DNA of 64,000 bases from Bdellovibrionota bacterium (GCA_044352465.1 JBILDU010000003.1:1752-65751); one strand, 5' to 3'; positions 7,020-15,071 are shown, counted from the stretch's first letter. Translations and numbers: made by a program. Notes: generated by a model from the sequence alone, not told the origin.

Positions 7020-8534
7020 ATGACTCAGCAACATCTCATAGCCCCGCAGCGTATCGCCTCGCGGGATGAAATGAACCTGGCTGAGTTTCCACTCACGGTA
7101 CTTTCCACTCGCGCGAATCCAGGGCTTAAGACCCTTGAGTTTAGCGACCACATCCGTGGAAAAAACGGAGAGCTCCTTGAGCGTAAATGGATCATCACCG
7201 GCGCTGATAAATTTGGGCTCCCCACCTCGTCGGACGATGAGGTCCTCCTCGGCCTTCTCAAACTAACTGTTGATGACGGGTTTCGCGAGCGTAAAATCTA
7301 CTTCACCCGTTACGAGCTCTTAAAGATATTACGCTGGACTACTGAGGGACGCAGTTACTCGCGGCTTCAAAAAGCGCTCGATCGCTTGAGCGGTGTGCGT
7401 ATCAAAGCGACGAACGCTTTCTACGATAACGAATCAAAATCGCACAGCACCCGCAACTTCGGTATCGTTGATGCCTATGAGATCAACGACGGACGTGATA
7501 GCTCGCCGAAACCGAGCTTCTTTATCTGGAGCGAGGTTCTCTTTAAGTCCTTTCAGGCGGGCTTTATTAAAAAGATCGACCTCGACTTTTATCTCGATCT
7601 TCAGAGCGCGGTATCGAAGCGGCTCTATCGCTACCTCGACAAACACTTCTGGTATAAAGCCCGCGTACAGACCAACCTTTTCACCCTAGCGCATGAGAAG
7701 ATCGGGATTTCGCGGAACTATGCTTACGCGAGTTCCCTGAGACAGCAGCTTGATCCTGCGGTTGAGGAACTGGTTAACCGAGGATTTCTATCGGGCTGTG
7801 AGTATATCGGTAAGGGAAAAAACACCGAAGTTGTGTTCTTTGCGGCGAGCACGAAGCCTCGGGTTGTTGCTGCACAAGGGCCCAAAGCCCCGGAGGTCCT
7901 TCCTCCCGAGCCGAAGGTGGAGCCGAGCATTCGAGAGACGGCGGAGCCTGCACCGCTCGATTATCGTGTGGCGGCGGAACTCGTTGCGCGCGGGCTACGC
8001 CAACATCAAGTCGAGCGGCTGCTGCAAAATCGGAGTGAAGAGCAGCTTCTTAAAATCGCGAAGATCGTGGAGCACTACGACTTTCTCAGGGCCTCCAACA
8101 GTCCGCGGATTAGCAAGAGCCCGATCGGATTCCTGTACCGTGCGGTGGAAAATCCCGACGCCTTCGTCCTGCCTAATGATGGGGCGAAGCCGGAGCAGGT
8201 CAATCTGAACCTTGAGAGCAAGGCGGCTCTACCCAAAGCACGGAGCGGGGCAGGGGAACGCACCGCCCAGCCCTCCCATGAGACCGAATATCTCATCGCT
8301 CGGAAACGTGAGCTGGTGCGCCTCCGCGAGTCCGTTGAGCCCGAACTTCTCGGAAAAATTCGGAGCGACGTCGAGAAAGCGCTCATGAAGCTTAAGGGAA
8401 GTATCTCTCCAAACCGATTTGATCAGGCGGTAAGCCATGCGGTGGACGAAAAGCTCGCCAAACTCTTCGCTTTACCAAGCTTTGAGGAGTGGCTCGTTCG
8501 GCGCACCGACGAATCGGAAGATCATGAGGACTGA
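7020..8534 (+). CDS. repA: Plasmid-type replication initiator protein A (RPA / TrfA-like winged-helix family)
   Basis: N-terminal RDEMNLAEFPL, GLPTSSDDEVLLGLL, FTRYELLKILRW...GRSYSRLQKALDRL and KRLYRYLDKHF resemble RPA-family initiators; the gene sits next to iterons and divergent parAB. Confidence 0.8.
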   Translation: MTQQHLIAPQRIASRDEMNLAEFPLTVLSTRANPGLKTLEFSDHIRGKNGELLERKWIITGADKFGLPTSSDDEVLLGLLKLTVDDGFRERKIYFTRYELLKILRWTTEGRSYSRLQKALDRLSGVRIKATNAFYDNESKSHSTRNFGIVDAYEINDGRDSSPKPSFFIWSEVLFKSFQAGFIKKIDLDFYLDLQSAVSKRLYRYLDKHFWYKARVQTNLFTLAHEKIGISRNYAYASSLRQQLDPAVEELVNRGFLSGCEYIGKGKNTEVVFFAASTKPRVVAAQGPKAPEVLPPEPKVEPSIRETAEPAPLDYRVAAELVARGLRQHQVERLLQNRSEEQLLKIAKIVEHYDFLRASNSPRISKSPIGFLYRAVENPDAFVLPNDGAKPEQVNLNLESKAALPKARSGAGERTAQPSHETEYLIARKRELVRLRESVEPELLGKIRSDVEKALMKLKGSISPNRFDQAVSHAVDEKLAKLFALPSFEEWLVRRTDESEDHED

Positions 8535-9174
8535 TACCGCTACATTCGAGCCACGCCCGACCTGTTACACCTGTTTTCGGCCTGAGACCCACTGTGTCTG
8601 CGGACTCGTCGCCCCGTTTCGAGCCCATACGAATCTTCTCCTTCTTCAGCATCCCCATGAACGCAAGAAGTACTATTCGACCTCCAAGATCGTTAGTCAG
8701 GCCATCGTCAACTTGAAGCTTGTGCGTGGTCTTGAGTTTGCTCCGGGGGAGATCCACTCCCATCTTCAGGGCCAGACCCCGTATCTACTTTTTCCGAGTC
8801 GCTCAGCGATCGACTGTACCGAGGTGGTGCTCGATGATAACAGCGCCGTTATTGTGGTGGACGGCACATGGGATGAGGCGGGAAAGATTTTGTTTCGAAA
8901 TCCCGAACTACGGAATTTCCCGTGTCTCACTTTCAAAGCCCCCTTGCGTTCAAACTACAGAATCCGAAAGCAACCCAAAGAGAATTATTTGAGCACGCTT
9001 GAATCGATCGCCCACCTTCTAAAGCTCAACGCGACCGCCCACGGTCTCACCGCTGCGACCGAAAACTACGACCGTCTGCTCGAGGGGTTTGATCGAATGG
9101 TCACCCAACAGCTCCAGTATTTCCCCCGCATGGGCGAGAATCGAGCCCGTGGGCGAGGGCGCCGCGCTGCCTAG
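8524..9174 (+). CDS. DTW-domain protein (tRNA-uridine aminocarboxypropyltransferase, TapT/YfiP-like); start ATG 8524 overlaps the rep 3' end
   Basis: CxxC..CxC, QHPHE, YLLFP, VDGTW, YRIRKQP and LSTLE motifs. Confidence 0.9.
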   Translation: MRTDTATFEPRPTCYTCFRPETHCVCGLVAPFRAHTNLLLLQHPHERKKYYSTSKIVSQAIVNLKLVRGLEFAPGEIHSHLQGQTPYLLFPSRSAIDCTEVVLDDNSAVIVVDGTWDEAGKILFRNPELRNFPCLTFKAPLRSNYRIRKQPKENYLSTLESIAHLLKLNATAHGLTAATENYDRLLEGFDRMVTQQLQYFPRMGENRARGRGRRAA

Positions 9175-9197: not shown

Positions 9198-9226
9198 TTG
9201 ACTCAGGGGGAAAAAATCTCTATCGT
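9198..9226 (+). promoter_or_regulatory. Sigma70-type promoter TTGACT-17-TATCGT; predicted +1 at the leader ATG (9233)
   Basis: -35 at 9198-9203, -10 at 9221-9226, 17-bp spacer. Confidence 0.65.
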
Positions 9227-9232
9227 CCCGTC

Positions 9233-9283
9233 ATGGTGTTTTTCCGGCAAATTTCGCAGATTCTCTCCCGCTGGTGGGCTTAA
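9233..9283 (+). CDS. Trp-Trp leader peptide MVFFRQISQILSRWWA (candidate attenuator uORF)
   Basis: 16 codons with tandem TGG TGG near the stop; hairpin TGGGC-TTAAC-GCCCA overlaps the second Trp codon and the stop; lies upstream of an IDO-like gene. Confidence 0.7.
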   Translation: MVFFRQISQILSRWWA

Positions 9284-9339
9284 CGCCCAAACACACTCCT
9301 TGCCTTCACGGCAGCATTCAAATTTCAGTTTCACTTATT

Positions 9340-9369
9340 AGCTTTTAAGAACCACAGCTTTTAAGAACC
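9340..9369. repeat. Direct repeat AGCTTTTAAGAACC x2 (16-bp period) in the operon leader
   Basis: Copies at 9340-9353 and 9356-9369. Confidence 0.9.
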
Positions 9370-9456
9370 GCTTCGCGCGCTCTGTTCGCACCTGATCTCC
9401 GCCCGCAGGGCGTCGGAATGTCCGTCTCGGTTCCCAAATGAAAAAGGTGTGCCTCC

Positions 9457-9798
9457 ATGAGCACAGACGATATCTTTACGCTCTTTGACCTTCGGATCGA
9501 GGTGACCGGACAGCAAGATGCGATGGTGTGTAGCCACTCCGTTGGTGATTACTTCTTGGTCCACGGTGAGAACCTCCTCTTTCCCGCCCAACAGTCGTTC
9601 TCGATGTATGCTCTCGCAGCGCTCCTGCCCCTCTTGCCAGCGAAGCAACGACCCACCTCCCCGAACGACTGGATGACTACCGACCATATGATCGCCTGCC
9701 CCGATCCTCACTGCGGCGGGCGTTTTAAAATTACGCGCACCGGTGTGCGCGAATTCCGTCATCACCAAGTAACGAAGGTCCCCCTTCCTAAAGAGTAG
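9457..9798 (+). CDS. TIGR04076-family small Cys/His protein
   Basis: FTLFDLRIEV, CSHSVGDYF, FSMYALAALLPLLPAKQR, NDWM and ACPDPHCGGRFKI motifs. Confidence 0.75.
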   Translation: MSTDDIFTLFDLRIEVTGQQDAMVCSHSVGDYFLVHGENLLFPAQQSFSMYALAALLPLLPAKQRPTSPNDWMTTDHMIACPDPHCGGRFKITRTGVREFRHHQVTKVPLPKE

Positions 9799-9803
9799 AG
9801 ATC

Positions 9804-10838
9804 ATGTACCAGCAAAATATACCTCAGGAGCGAAGCTCCACCTGCTTCTCCCCAGCGAAGAGCTGTCTCAATGCCCTCGAGCGGGCGGCGTGCTCACTTC
9901 CCACCCTTATCGAGCGGGGAGAGGTAAGCACTACCATCAACGGCCTCCTCGAGCGCCATGAAAATGGTCTCGCCGATCTCCTTGAATGTGGCTCCACCGC
10001 GCTTAAGAAAACGGCCCTGTTAGACTTAGTGATGTTTCAGCGGGCGCTCGAAATGGGGGCGGGGGCGACCCCTCCCCAGCTCGCCCAGTGGATCGCCCAG
10101 TTTGCACGTGATCTCGATACGCTCCCGACCCTTACGTATGAGCTTGTGATCCTTTCAAATCCTGAACGGGCTGTTCGCACCTTCACGGGTGGACAAGTCG
10201 GCGAGATAGAACGTGCTTTTTATATCGGGCACCAGGTGATTGAACATCGCTTTGAGGAGCTCAGCACCACACTCATGAGGGCGCGCGACCTCCTCGAAAG
10301 CGGGAATCGCCGCGCCGGGCTTCTACTGGTCGAGCACGGGCGCGATGTATTACGGGGGGCTACGGAGTCCTTTCACCACGGGTTCGCCGTGATGGATCCC
10401 GCCGCCTTCAACGCCTTTAGGGTGTACCTTCACGGTACCAGCGGCTACGAAGGCCCAAGCGGACTTCATTCCGCCACCATCCATGCGGCACGCTTTCTTA
10501 TCTTCGGCGATTCCCTCGGGTTCCGGGCGGATTTTATCGAGCGGCATCGGCCGTATTACCCAACGTGCCACAAAGAGATTCTTGAGACCGGGCTTGAAGC
10601 GGTCAGAGATAAGCGCTCGCTGGTGGATATTGCTCGCGGGACTACCGAACCCGACGTTCGACGCACCGTGGGGGAGCTCAGCGAAGAGATGCGGCTGCAT
10701 ACCGCTAAGCATTTCGGTGTGGTGCGACGAATGCTCACCGATCTATCGGGGCCGGGCACCGGTGGACAGCCGATGGGGACTTTTTTAAGACAAGCGGTCG
10801 ATGTCATGAAGGAGGTAAGCGATGAGCTTTTACGATAA
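9804..10838 (+). CDS. Indoleamine 2,3-dioxygenase / PrnB-like heme protein
   Basis: Ordered IDO-type motifs: PTLTY..VILSN, TFTG..E.AF..GH..IE, MDP..F..FR.YL.G, GPSGLHS, RPYYP, proximal-His-like KHFGVV and C-terminal GTGGQPMGTFL. Confidence 0.7.
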   Translation: MYQQNIPQERSSTCFSPAKSCLNALERAACSLPTLIERGEVSTTINGLLERHENGLADLLECGSTALKKTALLDLVMFQRALEMGAGATPPQLAQWIAQFARDLDTLPTLTYELVILSNPERAVRTFTGGQVGEIERAFYIGHQVIEHRFEELSTTLMRARDLLESGNRRAGLLLVEHGRDVLRGATESFHHGFAVMDPAAFNAFRVYLHGTSGYEGPSGLHSATIHAARFLIFGDSLGFRADFIERHRPYYPTCHKEILETGLEAVRDKRSLVDIARGTTEPDVRRTVGELSEEMRLHTAKHFGVVRRMLTDLSGPGTGGQPMGTFLRQAVDVMKEVSDELLR

Positions 10839-11895
10839 CGAAGCGAAGAGATACACCAGTGATGGTCCTTTCGAGCCACCCAAAGTGATTATCGGTTGCT
10901 GGCAGTTAGCGGGAGGCCACGGCGAACTGAGGGAGCGCGAGATACAAGTTCACCTAAGACGGGCAGTCGAACTGGGGCTCACCTCTTTTGATTGCGCCGA
11001 CATCTATACCGGTGTTGAGGAGCTTCTCGGTCGGTTTCTCGTGTCTCTTCGCCGGGATGCTCCTGACCTGGCCAGCCGGGTTCGTATCCATACAAAGTAC
11101 GTTCCGGATCTCGATAGCCTCAAGACGGTATCGAGGAAAGACGTTGTGCGGATAATCGATCGGTCGCTTCTACGGCTTCGGCTGGAGGAGCTTTACCTCG
11201 TGCAGTTTCATTGGTGGGATCTCACGATTCCCCGGTACGTTGAGGTGTTAAGTTATCTCGACGAGCTGAGGGCTATGGGAAAGATCCGGCACCTCGGACT
11301 CACGAACTTCGGGGTGCCCGAGGTCCAGGCGTTTCTCGACGCACGGATCCCGGTCGTCTCAAACCAGGTGCAGTATTCGGTCCTCGACCGACGCCCTGAG
11401 GCCGCGCTCAGCAACCTCTGCAAAGCGAAGGGAATTAAGCTTCTTTGCTACGGGACGACGGCGGGGGGATTTCTCACGGATCGGTACCTGGAAGCCGCTG
11501 AGCCTCCTCAGCCTTTTGATAACCGGTCGCTTATCAAGTATCGCCTCATCATTGAGGAGCTCGGTGGGTGGGGGAGGTATCAAGAGCTCCTGAGGGAACT
11601 AGGCGTGATAGCGGTAGAGGAAGGGGTCGATATAGCCTCGCTCTGTCAGCGCTTTATCCTTACCCGCCCGAGTGTTGGTGGGGTGATTGTGGGAGCGCGA
11701 AACTCCCACCATCTCGAGCGGAACCGACGACACCTCGAGGCCCCTCTTTCAAAGGAGGCAGCCGAGCGGATCGAATCGATTTTAAGGGATACTCATTCCG
11801 TTCCCGGGGAGGTGTACGCTCTTGAGCGGGACCGTAACGGAACCCACGGTCGAATCATGCGGTATAACCTAAATGACGGGTCAAAAGCTCAGTAA
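10822..11895 (+). CDS. Aldo/keto reductase
   Basis: GCWQLAGGHG, FDCADIYTGVEE, IHTK, LVQFHWWD, GKIRHLGLTNF and QVQYSVLDRRPE; overlaps the upstream gene. Confidence 0.92.
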   Translation: MSFYDNEAKRYTSDGPFEPPKVIIGCWQLAGGHGELREREIQVHLRRAVELGLTSFDCADIYTGVEELLGRFLVSLRRDAPDLASRVRIHTKYVPDLDSLKTVSRKDVVRIIDRSLLRLRLEELYLVQFHWWDLTIPRYVEVLSYLDELRAMGKIRHLGLTNFGVPEVQAFLDARIPVVSNQVQYSVLDRRPEAALSNLCKAKGIKLLCYGTTAGGFLTDRYLEAAEPPQPFDNRSLIKYRLIIEELGGWGRYQELLRELGVIAVEEGVDIASLCQRFILTRPSVGGVIVGARNSHHLERNRRHLEAPLSKEAAERIESILRDTHSVPGEVYALERDRNGTHGRIMRYNLNDGSKAQ

Positions 11896-12061: not shown

Positions 12062-12454
12062 ATGAAGCGTTACGCTTTAAGTCTCGCTCTCTCAATCGGC
12101 GCTTTCGCTGCTTCAGCTGTGGCGGCTGATAAGGTCAGCGTCACGATCGTCAACAACTCGTCGTTCGAGTTCCACAATATGTTCTTGAGCCCCACCAGCA
12201 CGAATCAATGGGGGCCTGATCAGTTGGAAGACAAAGTAATCGGTGCCGGCGAGTCGTTCACCTTGAACAATATTCCGAAAGGCGATTTTGACTTTAAGTT
12301 GATCGATGAAGACGGTGATGAATGCATCGCTGCAGGGGTGGAGCTCCGAGCGAGCGAGACCGTGGCTTTTAACGACGAGATGCTTGTCGGCTGCCAGGTC
12401 GCGACCAGCGAGGATGCGGGTGATGACGAAGGCGGTGAGGAGGACGAGGCCTAA
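12062..12454 (+). CDS. Small secreted protein with acidic tail
   Basis: Signal peptide (AVA-AD), FLSP...WGPDQL..VI..GESF beta-sandwich-like motif, D/E-rich C-terminus, and a purine-rich RBS (AAGGAAG). Confidence 0.75.
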   Translation: MKRYALSLALSIGAFAASAVAADKVSVTIVNNSSFEFHNMFLSPTSTNQWGPDQLEDKVIGAGESFTLNNIPKGDFDFKLIDEDGDECIAAGVELRASETVAFNDEMLVGCQVATSEDAGDDEGGEEDEA

Positions 12455-12657: not shown

Positions 12658-14865
12658 CTATTCCTCCGCGTCATCTCCCGGCGAGTCTTCGGTCGGCGCC
12701 TCGTCCTCTACCGAAGCCCCATCGTCTTCATCGCCGGTCTCGCCACTCTCGACGGCTTCTTCCGCCTCGTCGCTTGACTCCGTGCTCTCAGCTGCGTCGT
12801 CGCCTGAATCCGGCGAACTCTCCACGGTTGCGTCCTCCTCTCCACTCATATCTGGCTCATCCGCGACTTCGGCGTTGTCGTCGTCTGAGTCGGTGGCATC
12901 GGGGGGACTGTCGTTATCAGCTTCAGCGTCGGCGCTGTCGGCGGTGGCCTCGTCGTCTGAGTCGGCCGCGGCCTCTGCCTCGTCGGTCACATCATCGCCC
13001 GCAGCATCCTCGGCATCATCAGTGACGTCGGTATTCCCCTCGTCGGCTGCCACTTCATCGGCAACATCGGCGCTATCAGCGTCACCATCGTCTGCTTCAA
13101 CGCTCAACCCATCTTGATCAGCCGCATCGACCTCCCCGTCGTTGTCGTCGTCGGTGTCTGCTGCATCAGGAACAGAGTCGCCATCCGAGTCGAGCGACTC
13201 CTTGTCATCGCTGATCCCGTTGTTATCGTCGTCCGAGTCTTTAGCATCAACCGTGCCGTCGTTATCATCATCAGCATCGTCGTCGTTCGGTGTGCCGTCA
13301 CCATCGGAGTCGAGGTCGACGTCGAGTCGCCCCTCATCATCGATGTCGACGGTGACCTGGCCATCATCACCGAGGTCGATATCCGCCACCTCGAAGCTTT
13401 CAGACCCGTCCACATCGATCTCCTCGGCTGAGATATCACAGGTATCGAGGCTCGGATCGTCATCATGGAAGGTGACCTTTCCAGTATCGTCCTCTTGCGC
13501 CCCGAACGTCCGACCGTCGCTCAGCGTGAATCCCGTAACCTCGTAGATGGTGTTTCCACCCGCGTGGTCGCCCGCGATGCGGATCGTCGGCTTTTGCACA
13601 CCACCTGCTTGAAATTCGAAGCGGTCTTTGTCAAAGCTGACGCGCTGGGTGGTTGTGGGAGAGATTGCGATGTTTGAGACCGAGTAGACGTTGCCCGGTC
13701 CAAAGATCACGAGCCCTGTCTCCGGTTTCCGCGAGGGGCGACCGTCGTCCATAATCGCGAGATCGTACTGCTGATCCTTCGGGAGTCGCACGACACACCC
13801 GCGAGCTCCTCGAAGTGCGATCATTGACGCTTTGCCGAGCTCGTTCTTAGCCCCTTTCTTGCCTGCGGAGAGTTGTTTCTTGTCTGATTTCCGCGTGGCC
13901 TGGAGTTGCGAACACCGCGCCGGGGTGAAGACGATATAGTCGCCTGAAGTAACCGCGGGCTTTCGCGGCTTCTCCGGTGCGGCTGGAGCTTTGGGGCGCA
14001 CGGGGGCTACGTGGTCACCACAGAAGGGACACTCGAGCGTCTCGTAACGAATCGAGAGCGGGGTTAGATCCATCGTTCCCGCCCCGCCTTCCCATGGAGC
14101 CGGGTCCTCCTTTGGATTGAGCGCCGCTCCGGCGTAGACCCACCGGTCCCGGGGAACATCGATGTCGATATACTTCTCCGAACCCGGATAGTTATTGTCG
14201 TAGACAAAGACTCGATAGAGCCCCGCGCCCAGCTCTTCGACCTTGTACGGTGTGACCGCGTGTCCTCCATCTGAGCCGTAGATACCGAGGGTCATGTAAT
14301 CCCCACCCGGTTTGAGGCTCTTCATAAGCTGGTCAACGATCTGCTGGAGGGTCCACCCGCGAGTTGCCCCGGCGGTCGACTGAACCGGTTCAAGAGCCTG
14401 AGTGACGAAATAGGTCGATATTGTGCGCATCAAAGTCGCGTCGTTTGGCTTCAGCTCAAACGGTTGCTTGGCGCCGTAATCACCGACAGTCTCTTCTTGC
14501 ACATGAAAAGCTGCGCTCAAGGCAGCCATCCCCTCACATCGACCACCCTGCATCATCTGATTCATCTCGGTGAGCCACAGTTTCGCGGCTGCGGTCGGTA
14601 CACAGGAGTCTCCCTCGAAGCGCGCGCACACCCGGTCGCCGAAAAGATATGCGGCTTCATCGCCGGTGAGGTTTGAGACCGGATATTGGTCCCCCCCCCA
14701 GTTCTCAAATCCGAAGCCGTTCGGCCGGGGGCGAAAGCCGCTATCCGCGAGGATTTTACCCGAAGCCCCACTTTTCTCGCCGTCTTGAGCGATTGCGGGT
14801 ACAGCTCCGTTGAGAGCAGAGGTTAAGACAGCGATTGCATAAGCACGAATGAGCAGCTGAGACAT
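12658..14865 (-). CDS. Large secreted protein: papain-like Cys-His-Asp domain, thrombospondin type-3-like Ca-binding repeats and a very acidic tail (start about 14865)
   Basis: Signal peptide ending AIA-QD; GRCEGMA, GGHAVTPY, VYDNNYPG; DSDGDG / DDDNDG repeats; about 140-aa D/E/A/S low-complexity tail. Confidence 0.75.
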   Translation of the reverse strand: MSQLLIRAYAIAVLTSALNGAVPAIAQDGEKSGASGKILADSGFRPRPNGFGFENWGGDQYPVSNLTGDEAAYLFGDRVCARFEGDSCVPTAAAKLWLTEMNQMMQGGRCEGMAALSAAFHVQEETVGDYGAKQPFELKPNDATLMRTISTYFVTQALEPVQSTAGATRGWTLQQIVDQLMKSLKPGGDYMTLGIYGSDGGHAVTPYKVEELGAGLYRVFVYDNNYPGSEKYIDIDVPRDRWVYAGAALNPKEDPAPWEGGAGTMDLTPLSIRYETLECPFCGDHVAPVRPKAPAAPEKPRKPAVTSGDYIVFTPARCSQLQATRKSDKKQLSAGKKGAKNELGKASMIALRGARGCVVRLPKDQQYDLAIMDDGRPSRKPETGLVIFGPGNVYSVSNIAISPTTTQRVSFDKDRFEFQAGGVQKPTIRIAGDHAGGNTIYEVTGFTLSDGRTFGAQEDDTGKVTFHDDDPSLDTCDISAEEIDVDGSESFEVADIDLGDDGQVTVDIDDEGRLDVDLDSDGDGTPNDDDADDDNDGTVDAKDSDDDNNGISDDKESLDSDGDSVPDAADTDDDNDGEVDAADQDGLSVEADDGDADSADVADEVAADEGNTDVTDDAEDAAGDDVTDEAEAAADSDDEATADSADAEADNDSPPDATDSDDDNAEVADEPDMSGEEDATVESSPDSGDDAAESTESSDEAEEAVESGETGDEDDGASVEDEAPTEDSPGDDAEE

Positions 14866-15071
14866 ATGATCTAAATCCATGAAGAAAGACGGTGAGGGGA
14901 TGGTCGCCCGGAGCGGCGTGCGGGTCAATCCGGAACGGGGCCAGAAAAAATAAATTTAATGGGATAGCGCTCTGAGAACACCAATGGCAGGTGAAAAGGC
15001 CTATCGGAAGGGATACGAGGGCGGACGAGACATCATCCGGTGGCTAATTCATGGAGGGCAGAGCCGGGTGG

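Follow-up and report, generated by a model that had tools for sequence, protein, structure and literature searches.

The stretch of DNA analysed here is a 64,000-nt segment of a Bdellovibrionota genome (GCA_044352465.1 JBILDU010000003.1:1752-65751), hereafter the window, within which coordinates are counted and whose genome is designated G000. Between 9198 and 11895 it contains an operon of three genes, which code for a TIGR04076-family protein, a predicted haem protein of the IDO fold and an aldo-keto reductase (AKR), preceded by a leader with a short upstream open reading frame (uORF) that ends in two adjacent tryptophan (Trp) codons. From the comparison of this leader with its counterparts in other genomes, we consider it probable that the uORF is a Trp-codon leader peptide, which would attenuate the operon and release it when charged tRNA-Trp is scarce. 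The features of the locus are as follows.

9198..9226, plus strand: sigma-70-like promoter, TTGACT (9198-9203), a spacer of 17 nt and TATCGT (9221-9226), with 9/12 consensus matches
9233..9283, plus strand: leader uORF of 16 codons, MVFFRQISQILSRWWA-stop, ending ...SRWWA, by direct reading
9272..9277, plus strand: tandem Trp codons, uORF codons 14 and 15, the proposed sensing site
9275..9289, plus strand: hairpin 1, TGGGC-TTAAC-GCCCA
9284..9343, plus strand: C-rich, G-poor tract right behind the uORF stop, a candidate Rho loading site
9300..9314, plus strand: hairpin 2, TTGCC-TTCAC-GGCAG
9340..9371, no strand assigned: 16-nt unit present twice in tandem (AGCTTTTAAGAACCAC / ...CGC), within the leader
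9457..9798, plus strand: TIGR04076-family protein, 113 aa, 66.1 bits against a cut-off of 33 (NCBIfam model)
9804..10838, plus strand: predicted IDO-fold haem protein, 344 aa, Pfam IDO 22.8 bits and TDO 16.9 bits, both sub-threshold
10822..11895, plus strand: AKR, 357 aa, PF00248 224.5 bits, profile positions 1-290 of 291

A preliminary description of this DNA had reported the promoter, the 16-codon uORF, both hairpins and the lack of a classical terminator, and direct reading showed its coordinates to be correct; the three tightly spaced or overlapping genes that it had listed were confirmed by ORF and profile matches. The TIGR04076 gene is separated from the IDO-like gene by 5 nt, and the IDO-like and AKR genes overlap by 17 nt. 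By direct reading, the uORF starts (ATG at 9233) 6 nt past the -10 hexamer. The promoter geometry recurs in two of the genomes described below, G001 (TTGACT-17-TATTGT) and G124 (TTGACT-17-TATTCT, 7 nt from the uORF), and because the distance from the -10 hexamer to the ATG is 6-7 nt in the window, G001 and G124, we infer that the uORF mRNA of the window is probably leaderless, with transcription starting at or next to the ATG. In a further relative, G010, TTGACT-17-TATCAC was read by eye, and the promoter tool gave no flag there. The 5′ arm of hairpin 1 is formed by the last Trp codon and the Ala codon, and its loop by the stop codon. In the first 60 nt after this stop the frequency of C is 0.33 and that of G is 0.12; a C-G difference of at least 0.20 occurs in 4% of the 60-nt windows of the window genome, and the same C-rich, G-poor skew follows the stop in G001 and in another relative, G028, and is weaker in G010. 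The terminator scan detected no stem followed by a U-tract on the plus strand of the window leader. Rfam matched no family to this leader (E up to 10) and nothing relevant to five related loci (gathering threshold), and constrained folds of the window leader revealed no alternative pairing dependent on the position of the ribosome. The 16-nt unit is present in 1 copy (runs X8 and X17) or 3 copies (X10) in metagenome contigs of close strains, and it is not present in the G001 leader; since its copy number differs among strains, it is probably a small, dispensable variable-number repeat inside the regulatory leader. It is conservation across genomes, and not the statistics of a single sequence, that appears to settle the case for the leader.

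The phylum of the window was sampled with 124 genomes. With the window IDO-like protein as the query, 5 of 61 relatives matched, and with a profile of the IDO-like family 32 of the 124 genomes did so at E <= 1e-8. Strong matches (E <= 1e-37) were obtained only in G000, G001, G010, G019 and G028; those of the other 27 genomes were at 1.8e-17 or weaker, and their genes resemble ordinary IDO/TDO genes of ~400 aa. TIGR04076 was above the cut-off in 4 of the 124 genomes (G000, G001, G010 and G028), and in each of them it adjoins the IDO-like gene. The preliminary description had proposed a search for Trp-codon uORFs upstream of homologous operons. Such a uORF, ending W-x(0-2)-W-A-stop and with a hairpin over the stop, was found in all four TIGR04076 operons of the phylum; the identity of the IDO-like protein to that of the window is 67% in G001, 31% in G010 and 32-40% for two G028 pieces. 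The G001 uORF is MVFFSSSIRSLSRWWA, with synonymous changes in Arg and Ala codons, that of G010 is MKLTCFKFSVSIWQVWA, and that of G028 has 31 codons and ends ...ALSFWRWA, the others having 16-17 codons. In all four a GCCC(A) just past the stop is paired with the final two sense codons, Trp and Ala, although the letters differ: the counterparts of hairpin 1 are TGGGCC-TAA-GGCCCA in G001, TGGGC-TTAGT-GCCCA in G010, which the tool flagged as terminator-like, and GGGC-CTA-GCCC in G028, which is part of a longer stem with seven U behind it. No stem with a U-tract was found after the uORF in G001. Counterparts of hairpin 2 were observed in G001 (TTGCCC-TTC-GGGCAA) and G028 (TGCCC-TGCAA-GGGCA), and none was seen in G010. 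For this comparison the four leaders were aligned by anchoring on the uORF stop, as MAFFT misaligned the distant ones. The end motif W-x(0-2)-W-A-stop is rare, with 13 copies in the 6,258,414 six-frame codon positions of G000, or ~6e-4 expected per 300 nt, and among these 13 copies the hairpin is found only at that of the window. In addition, in a strain variant that is ~95% identical (a lake-water metagenome contig), the sole change in the 51 nt of the uORF is TAA to TAG, and the 58 nt before the uORF carry 6 substitutions and 2 insertions; over the 173 nt downstream of the uORF there are 8 substitutions and a deletion of 16 nt. The view that the uORF is a conserved, ribosome-read Trp-codon leader of this operon is supported by these comparisons.

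Two of the strong carriers depart from this layout in their genes. In G028 the IDO-like gene is split into overlapping ORFs of 185 and 225 aa (L005/L053, 366-1497, minus strand), which could be due to a frameshift, to decay of the gene or to an error of assembly. G019 (L008, 3917-8349) has the IDO-like gene and trpB, and lacks both TIGR04076 and the Trp leader; its IDO-like protein is fused to an S-adenosylmethionine methyltransferase (682 aa) and its AKR to an ATP-grasp domain (779 aa), and judged from the proteins these fusions look like a secondary-metabolite offshoot of the enzymes of the operon.

The same operon is present behind other leaders in a second phylum, in Saccharibacteria, where 2 of 401 sampled genomes carry the IDO-like gene (G420 and G124, the latter at L010), as do 6 of the 201 sampled genomes of the taxonomic order of G124. 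In G420 the gene order is IDO-like, AKR, TIGR04076, and the leader ORF, MLNWWWTLNFFSQSPLLSIR, lies behind TTGACA-17-TAAAGT. The fold of this leader RNA has a z of -5.5, none of 200 shuffles being equally stable; segment 1, with three Trp codons, pairs with segment 2, which can alternatively pair with segment 3, and the 3:4 terminator is a stem of 10 pairs followed by UUUUUGUUUGU, a U-tract. In G665, G639 and G546 the layout is a Trp_repressor gene, leader, terminator, IDO-like, a luciferase-like reductase and TIGR04076. Their leader ORFs (...GAWRSSRDKWESI, ...GAWRSSYYSWEYI and ...GAWWNSRYIWESI, respectively) have 25-27 codons with 2-3 Trp codons, in the form ...GAW(R/W)(S/N)S...WE(S/Y)I-stop. 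The region of the second Trp codon (UGGGAGU) forms a hairpin with the upstream CUCUCG/CUCC, and the terminator is CUCCC-loop-GGGAG followed by six U, the 5′ arm of which can alternatively pair with UGGGAGU. In G124 the uORF, MSRSVNQFYFFWFTNPQDVAVTS, contains the aromatic run FYFFWF (L010, 1833-1982), the terminator is CCGCC-ACAA-GGCGG followed by seven U, and the genes are, in order, a 107-aa ORF, an aroFGH-type DAHP synthase (393 bits), IDO-like, a luciferase-like reductase standing where the AKR would be, TIGR04076 and trpS, which is the sole trpS of the genome and whose start overlaps the stop of TIGR04076. The DAHP synthase is unexpected in this genome of 0.9 Mb, in which no chorismate synthase was found.

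In all, 11 genomes have the IDO-like gene beside TIGR04076, and in 10 of them the upstream DNA is readable, that of G661 being lost at a contig end and left out of this set. Among the 10 readable regions, 8 contain a short ORF in which Trp is encoded at least twice, one has an aromatic run with a single Trp, and in the remaining one, G674, no Trp leader was seen upstream, as judged by eye only. A contig scan of genomes gave 4 loci, 3 of which were already in the set, and one of metagenome contigs gave a single 1.3-kb locus (L041), which was not used. By our reading about four of the leader designs are independent; they are spread over two phyla, and three of them have textbook terminators. This shows that Trp- or aromatic-codon leaders apparently arose repeatedly before the same operon.

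A second type of Trp control is associated with some of these operons. The first gene of the operon is a Pfam Trp_repressor gene in four genomes, G028 (72.5 bits) as well as G665, G639 and G546 (57-60 bits for these three), and in the PDB the G028 protein is matched best by the E. coli Trp repressor (4e-8), with YerC-like structures ranking behind. The sequence GTACTAGTAC lies between TTGACT and the -10 region of the G028 promoter and is the sole copy in this 4.7-Mb genome, CGTACTAGTATGCTAGTA is found at the promoter in G639 and G546, and ACTAG/CTAG repeats are found at the G665 promoter. For comparison, E. coli trpO is given as GAACTAGTTAACTAGTAC in PMC13762905. Four operons have a TrpR-family gene as their first gene, preceded by a trpO-like GTACTAGT site, which is a candidate operator; no ACTAGT is present in the window promoter. 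TrpR-family genes of G010 and G019 were considered as links to the operon and rejected, as they are located elsewhere and are YerC/YecD-like by reading; that of G010 is divergent from hisG (L044, 364-1767) and that of G019 stands alone.

We then analysed the Trp genes and the Trp content of the hosts. The trpB gene was over the cut-off in none of the 11 genomes with IDO-like and TIGR04076, versus 85 of the 124 genomes of the phylum of the window, and indole-3-glycerol-phosphate synthase (trpC) in none of the 5 genomes tested; chorismate synthase turned up in G000 and G010 alone. The three enzymes of the operon contain no Trp at all among 679-735 residues in each of G124, G665, G639 and G546, where even the otherwise nearly invariant Trp of TIGR04076 is replaced; the flanking ORFs contain 1.17% Trp, which gives P ~2-3e-4 per genome for enzymes free of Trp, the genomes being related. 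In the window the three proteins have 0.74% Trp, against 1.09% genome-wide. The rho gene is over the cut-off in G000 (708 bits versus 509), G001, G010 and G028, and not in G420, which uses an intrinsic terminator. The absence of kynB/kynU, as had been reported for the locus, was borne out in part: no kynureninase was found in G000 and G010, but one is over the cut-off in G001 and G028, away from the operon. This inconsistent distribution among the four genomes led us to drop a link to the kynurenine pathway.

The products of the operon were examined by profile and structure comparisons. The TIGR04076 protein, with an AlphaFold2 model of good quality (predicted local distance difference test, pLDDT, 87.2), has the invariant residues Cys25, His27, Cys81 and Cys86. 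A fold search against the PDB gave nothing significant (best E 0.2), the top matches by TM-score being XdhC-type N-terminal domains (TM 0.45, E 1.2), which are not significant either. The family is strongly conserved, with 5418 matches, many of them at ~70% identity, some of which are labelled Woeseiaceae or Xanthomonadales; in the window, many unrelated metagenome contigs align at >=80% DNA identity over 9620-9720, within this gene, and this peak of depth agrees with the high conservation of the protein. Among 46 longer TIGR04076 homologues, 21 are TIGR04076-AKR fusions, and the AKR portion of one of them is 48% identical to the window AKR over 335 residues; furthermore, in G010 the IDO-like protein is fused to the AKR. 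The proposal that TIGR04076 and AKR work as a pair, already made in the preliminary description, gains from these fusions, which support a real functional unit. Transporters are the fused or co-called partner in a few of the 46, of the NhaC type (PF03553) in 3 and of the MFS type in 2. The two papers that were found to name the TIGR04076 family give no function. The nearest solved relatives of the AKR are ketoreductases (best PDB match MtmW, 1.5e-28), and by sequence the window AKR belongs to a subfamily that is often fused to TIGR04076.

The middle gene had been assigned to the IDO/PrnB superfamily, to be checked against PF01231 and PrnB. The window protein itself fails the Pfam gathering scores (PF01231 22.8 versus 26; PF03301 16.9 versus 34.9), but of 65 family members, 27 reach E <= 0.01 against PF01231, and a profile of the 65 matches IDO1 (1e-13), IDO2, TDO (1e-10) and, at 0.015, PrnB in the PDB. 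The AlphaFold2 model (pLDDT 94.9) matches human IDO1 over both domains (Foldseek E 2.3e-9, TM 0.72-0.77). In the 65 sequences His303 is invariant, and Arg206, His143 and Gly318-Thr319 (GTGG) are at least 90% conserved. In the alignment to IDO1, His303 falls on the proximal haem His, Arg206 on the carboxylate-binding Arg and the GTGG loop on the amino-binding loop; a GPSG falls on the GGSA loop, and His143 occupies the distal position, which is Ser in IDO1. The nearest clusters in a protein atlas are of the PrnB/IDO family, which serves as a lead only. An exhaustive profile search gave 375 representatives of the family at 50% identity, where a word-indexed search with the window protein had found 4 matches; the clusters of 10 of these representatives bear neither names nor taxa. 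By predicted fold, family profile and conserved haem- and substrate-contacting residues, then, the assignment holds, and the middle gene encodes a true member of the IDO/TDO/PrnB superfamily, in an uncharacterised subfamily. Because the haem His and the carboxylate- and amino-binding residues are kept, its substrate would most probably be Trp or a closely similar alpha-amino acid. Pfam revealed no peptidase, transporter or recognition domain among the products of the operon.

The preliminary description had suggested ribosome-mediated Trp sensing, possibly Rho-dependent or of inverted logic. The sensing part stands, as the Trp-codon leader is conserved, but the inverted logic does not, as the evidence points to induction by starvation. 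In attenuators of the trp type, the polymerase reads through when ribosomes stall at the Trp codons. The operon would be made when Trp is short, because classical attenuators with a terminator and an antiterminator precede the same operon elsewhere, because TrpR genes with trpO-like sites stand at its promoters, because it is linked to trpS and DAHP synthase in G124, because its enzymes are free of Trp in four genomes, and because the standard Trp genes are missing from the host genomes; for the window itself this direction is taken by analogy from the attenuators of the other phylum. A Rho-dependent attenuation is the likeliest mechanism in the window, since an intrinsic terminator is lacking there, the RNA behind the stop is rich in C and poor in G, and the genome carries rho, which leaves the Rho dependence that had been suggested plausible; the outcome would be read by Rho in this leader and perhaps by an intrinsic terminator in those of G028 and G010. 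Transcription would begin at or beside the ATG of the uORF, and the leaderless uORF would be translated immediately. When Trp is ample, the ribosome would clear UGG-UGG, terminate one codon further on and depart, so that the stop-codon hairpin forms and the exposed C-rich, G-poor RNA lets Rho stop transcription ahead of TIGR04076. When charged tRNA-Trp is low, the ribosome would be held at the two UGG codons, hairpin 1 would stay melted, and the held ribosome would shield the start of the C-rich tract, so that the polymerase continues into the operon.

Several points weigh against this interpretation. The transcription start, the translation of the uORF and the Trp response of the window leader are all predictions from sequence, and single-sequence statistics lend them no help: the window leader has 1 promoter-like site versus 2.1 +/- 1.7 in shuffles, which is the chance level, and its RNA fold is not more stable than shuffles (z = +0.59). 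Of the listed sequencing runs that contain this stretch, none is recorded as RNA. The end motif was widened post hoc from WWA-stop after the relatives had been seen. The counts overstate the independence of the cases, since the three Saccharibacteria leaders of the trpR type are 81% alike, G000 and G001 belong to one genus and G010 and G028 to one family. All members of the second phylum are without trp genes anyway, so that the absence of trpB there weighs little, and a TrpR gene was not found in the G000 or G001 genomes. The Rho model draws on nothing beyond base composition and the occurrence of a rho gene. Neither the window nor G001 has a terminator or a recognisable antiterminator, and since the UGG-UGG stall and the termination at the stop codon are just 3-6 nt apart, a classical switch based on ribosome position cannot work there. 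The conservation of W-A-stop beside the stop could also fit a termination-arrest peptide. Finally, an oxygenase that consumes a Trp-like substrate is odd under Trp starvation, and no Trp-yielding reaction can be named for it.

Among the alternatives, the one that survives best keeps the Trp-starvation leader and dispenses with Rho: hairpin 1 would be a weak intrinsic terminator or pause site whose formation is prevented by a ribosome stalled on UGG, or control would act on translation, with the ribosome-binding site of TIGR04076 hidden by leader structure as long as no ribosome is stalled. It would account for the longer stem and the seven U of G028, for the terminator-like call in G010, and for a CUCCUU between the hairpins of the window and G001 that by reading is complementary to AAGG-type ribosome-binding sites, both of which lie inside small hairpins. 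However, the U-tract is missing after hairpin 1 in the window and G001, and in the constrained folds the ribosome-binding site shows no consistent change between the stalled and the unstalled state, so that we regard this mechanism as unlikely, if well worth keeping in mind.

A sensor of free Trp of the TnaC type, in which the nascent ...SRWWA together with Trp would block release and hide the Rho site, so that an excess of Trp would induce catabolism, appears improbable. The Trp residues do adjoin the stop, the final W-A-stop is kept in the four genomes of the phylum, a C-rich tract lies behind the stop as in tna, and Trp degradation is the normal role of IDO enzymes. However, the hairpin sequence also accounts for W-A-stop, and the four leader designs have only Trp codons in common. 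TnaC has a Trp ~12 residues before a C-terminal Pro and a conserved Asp; these hallmarks are not in the window peptide, and there is no tryptophanase in the operon. The inverted logic is further countered by the three classical, starvation-type attenuator designs, by the TrpR genes and trpO-like sites at four of the operons, by the Trp-free enzymes of four genomes, and by the occurrence of the operon with trpS and DAHP synthase.

There is very little to recommend the uORF as a functional small peptide, for instance a precursor whose C-terminal Trp would be the substrate of the haem enzyme. In the four related genomes the peptide varies in its N-terminal half and is conserved at its C-terminus, and the uORF adjoins tailoring-type enzymes, whose fusions to methyltransferase and ATP-grasp in G019 resemble secondary metabolism; but the leaders of the other phylum share only Trp codons, embedded in terminator and antiterminator RNA, G019 and G674 carry the enzymes without such an ORF, the Arg and the GTGG loop, which bind the carboxylate and amino groups of a free amino acid, are retained in the IDO-like protein, and the operon has no peptidase, transporter or recognition domain. 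Least credible of all is a chance ORF in DNA conserved merely as a promoter and structural intergenic elements, for although the single-sequence promoter and fold statistics are at chance, the frame, the length, the synonymous changes and the stop are all retained, the end motif is very rare in the genome, and Trp-codon ORFs recur ahead of the operon in the other phylum.

With a leader released by scarcity of charged tRNA-Trp as the preferred interpretation, the function of the operon can be considered. Its regulation is of the Trp-supply type and the fold of its central protein is of the Trp-consuming oxygenase type. We propose, from the residues of the IDO-like protein, that the substrate of its products is an alpha-amino acid resembling Trp. 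A Trp-induced, ordinary catabolism fits poorly, and a catabolic oxidation or rearrangement of Trp followed by reduction, as had been put forward for this operon, seems unlikely. Three other chemistries were considered and are not claimed: the dioxygenase reaction run backwards reductively, a stereoinversion of D-Trp, and the reduction of haem by TIGR04076. Most likely the operon would restore Trp-tRNA charging, by the salvage of a Trp-related compound of the prey or host or by destroying a Trp analogue, but this is the weakest step of the argument and is held with low confidence; a third reading that fits the regulation, a starvation signal made from Trp, is ranked below salvage and analogue removal. 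In its boldest and tentative form, which we think doubtful, the proposal would be that the three genes, with an AKR or a luciferase-like protein as the reductase, constitute a new haem-dependent route by which predatory or epibiotic bacteria devoid of trp genes obtain L-tryptophan, made or regenerated from a Trp-related compound that they scavenge; if true, this would explain the repeated trp-operon-style control, the linkage to trpS and DAHP synthase and the proteins purged of Trp.

Upstream of an operon with a gene for an IDO-like haem protein, controls of the trp type appear to have arisen in at least four separate versions across two phyla, and the widespread TIGR04076-AKR pair, with thousands of metagenome proteins, would gain its first physiological handle. 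This would point to an unrecognised answer to Trp starvation in host-dependent bacteria, whether by salvage, analogue removal or signalling. The design is also a compact one, with Trp codons immediately before the stop, a stop-codon hairpin and a readout probably by Rho. The form in the lineage of the window is unusual in that the Trp codons abut the stop within a stop-codon hairpin, with no terminator and probably with a leaderless mRNA.

The neighbourhood of the operon contains further genes. Directly upstream are genes for a replication initiator protein A (Pfam RPA, 69.8 bits; 7020-8534) and a DTW-domain protein (148 bits; 8437-9174), and the order RPA, DTW, leader, operon is kept in G001; given the RPA gene, the contig may be a plasmid, a chromid or an integrated element. 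Downstream, a 130-aa protein with a signal peptide by reading and no Pfam match (12062-12454) adjoins the operon in G001 too, and a 756-aa protein encoded on the minus strand (12658-14928) has a long, Asp/Glu-rich C-terminal half and no Pfam match.

Trp-codon leaders and TrpR are the textbook controls of Trp synthesis, and the trp-type leader is known as a kind; what may be new is the operon under its control and, possibly, the pathway behind it. As in E. coli TrpL, a short ORF with tandem Trp codons stands between the promoter and the operon in the window, and the 1:2/2:3/3:4 architecture with a U-tract terminator is also present in G420 and in the Saccharibacteria G665, G639 and G546. In G028, G665, G639 and G546 the likeness extends to E. 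coli TrpR/trpO, with TrpR-family genes and GTACTAGT operator-like sites at the promoters. Unlike in the E. coli trp system, the genes controlled here are not those of Trp biosynthesis, and the hosts are without trpB (0/11) and trpC (0/5 tested). The window leader differs further from TrpL in that it lacks an intrinsic terminator and antiterminator, its Trp codons abut the stop, it is probably leaderless, and no TrpR was found. A parallel to the operons headed by TrpR is that of Chlamydia trachomatis, a host-dependent Trp auxotroph in which, according to PMC7755916, trpR is followed by a Trp-codon attenuation region and salvage genes, in the order trpR-leader-trpBA. The same order is found in G028, G665, G639 and G546, with the three genes in the place of trpBA, so that the downstream products are TIGR04076, an IDO-like protein and a reductase instead of Trp synthase.

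The attenuation proposed for the window has relatives among Rho-dependent leader ORFs, of which mgtA/mgtL is an example. We know of no Trp-codon Rho attenuator that governs such an operon, and a search of the literature found no description of such a leader, or of a Trp-codon Rho attenuator before such an operon. In this class, as outlined in a review (PMC12360218), the translation or stalling of the leader ORF governs the access of Rho, and the window leader would belong here if Rho acts as proposed. With TnaC/tnaCAB, as described in PMC8429421 and PMC3902921, the window would share a Trp-related signal and a Rho-dependent attenuation without an intrinsic terminator, in which a ribosome near the leader stop could mask the Rho loading site. 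However, TnaC responds to free Trp by way of a specific nascent peptide and switches catabolism on, whereas the evidence here favours the sensing of low Trp-tRNA at the level of codons, and the peptide motif is not shared. As for the enzyme, the predicted two-domain fold is that of IDO1, IDO2, TDO and PrnB (TM 0.72-0.77 to human IDO1), at ~18% identity; in contrast to these proteins, the IDO-like protein is encoded beside TIGR04076 and a reductase, is in some cases fused to the reductase, and appears to be regulated like the product of a Trp-supply gene.

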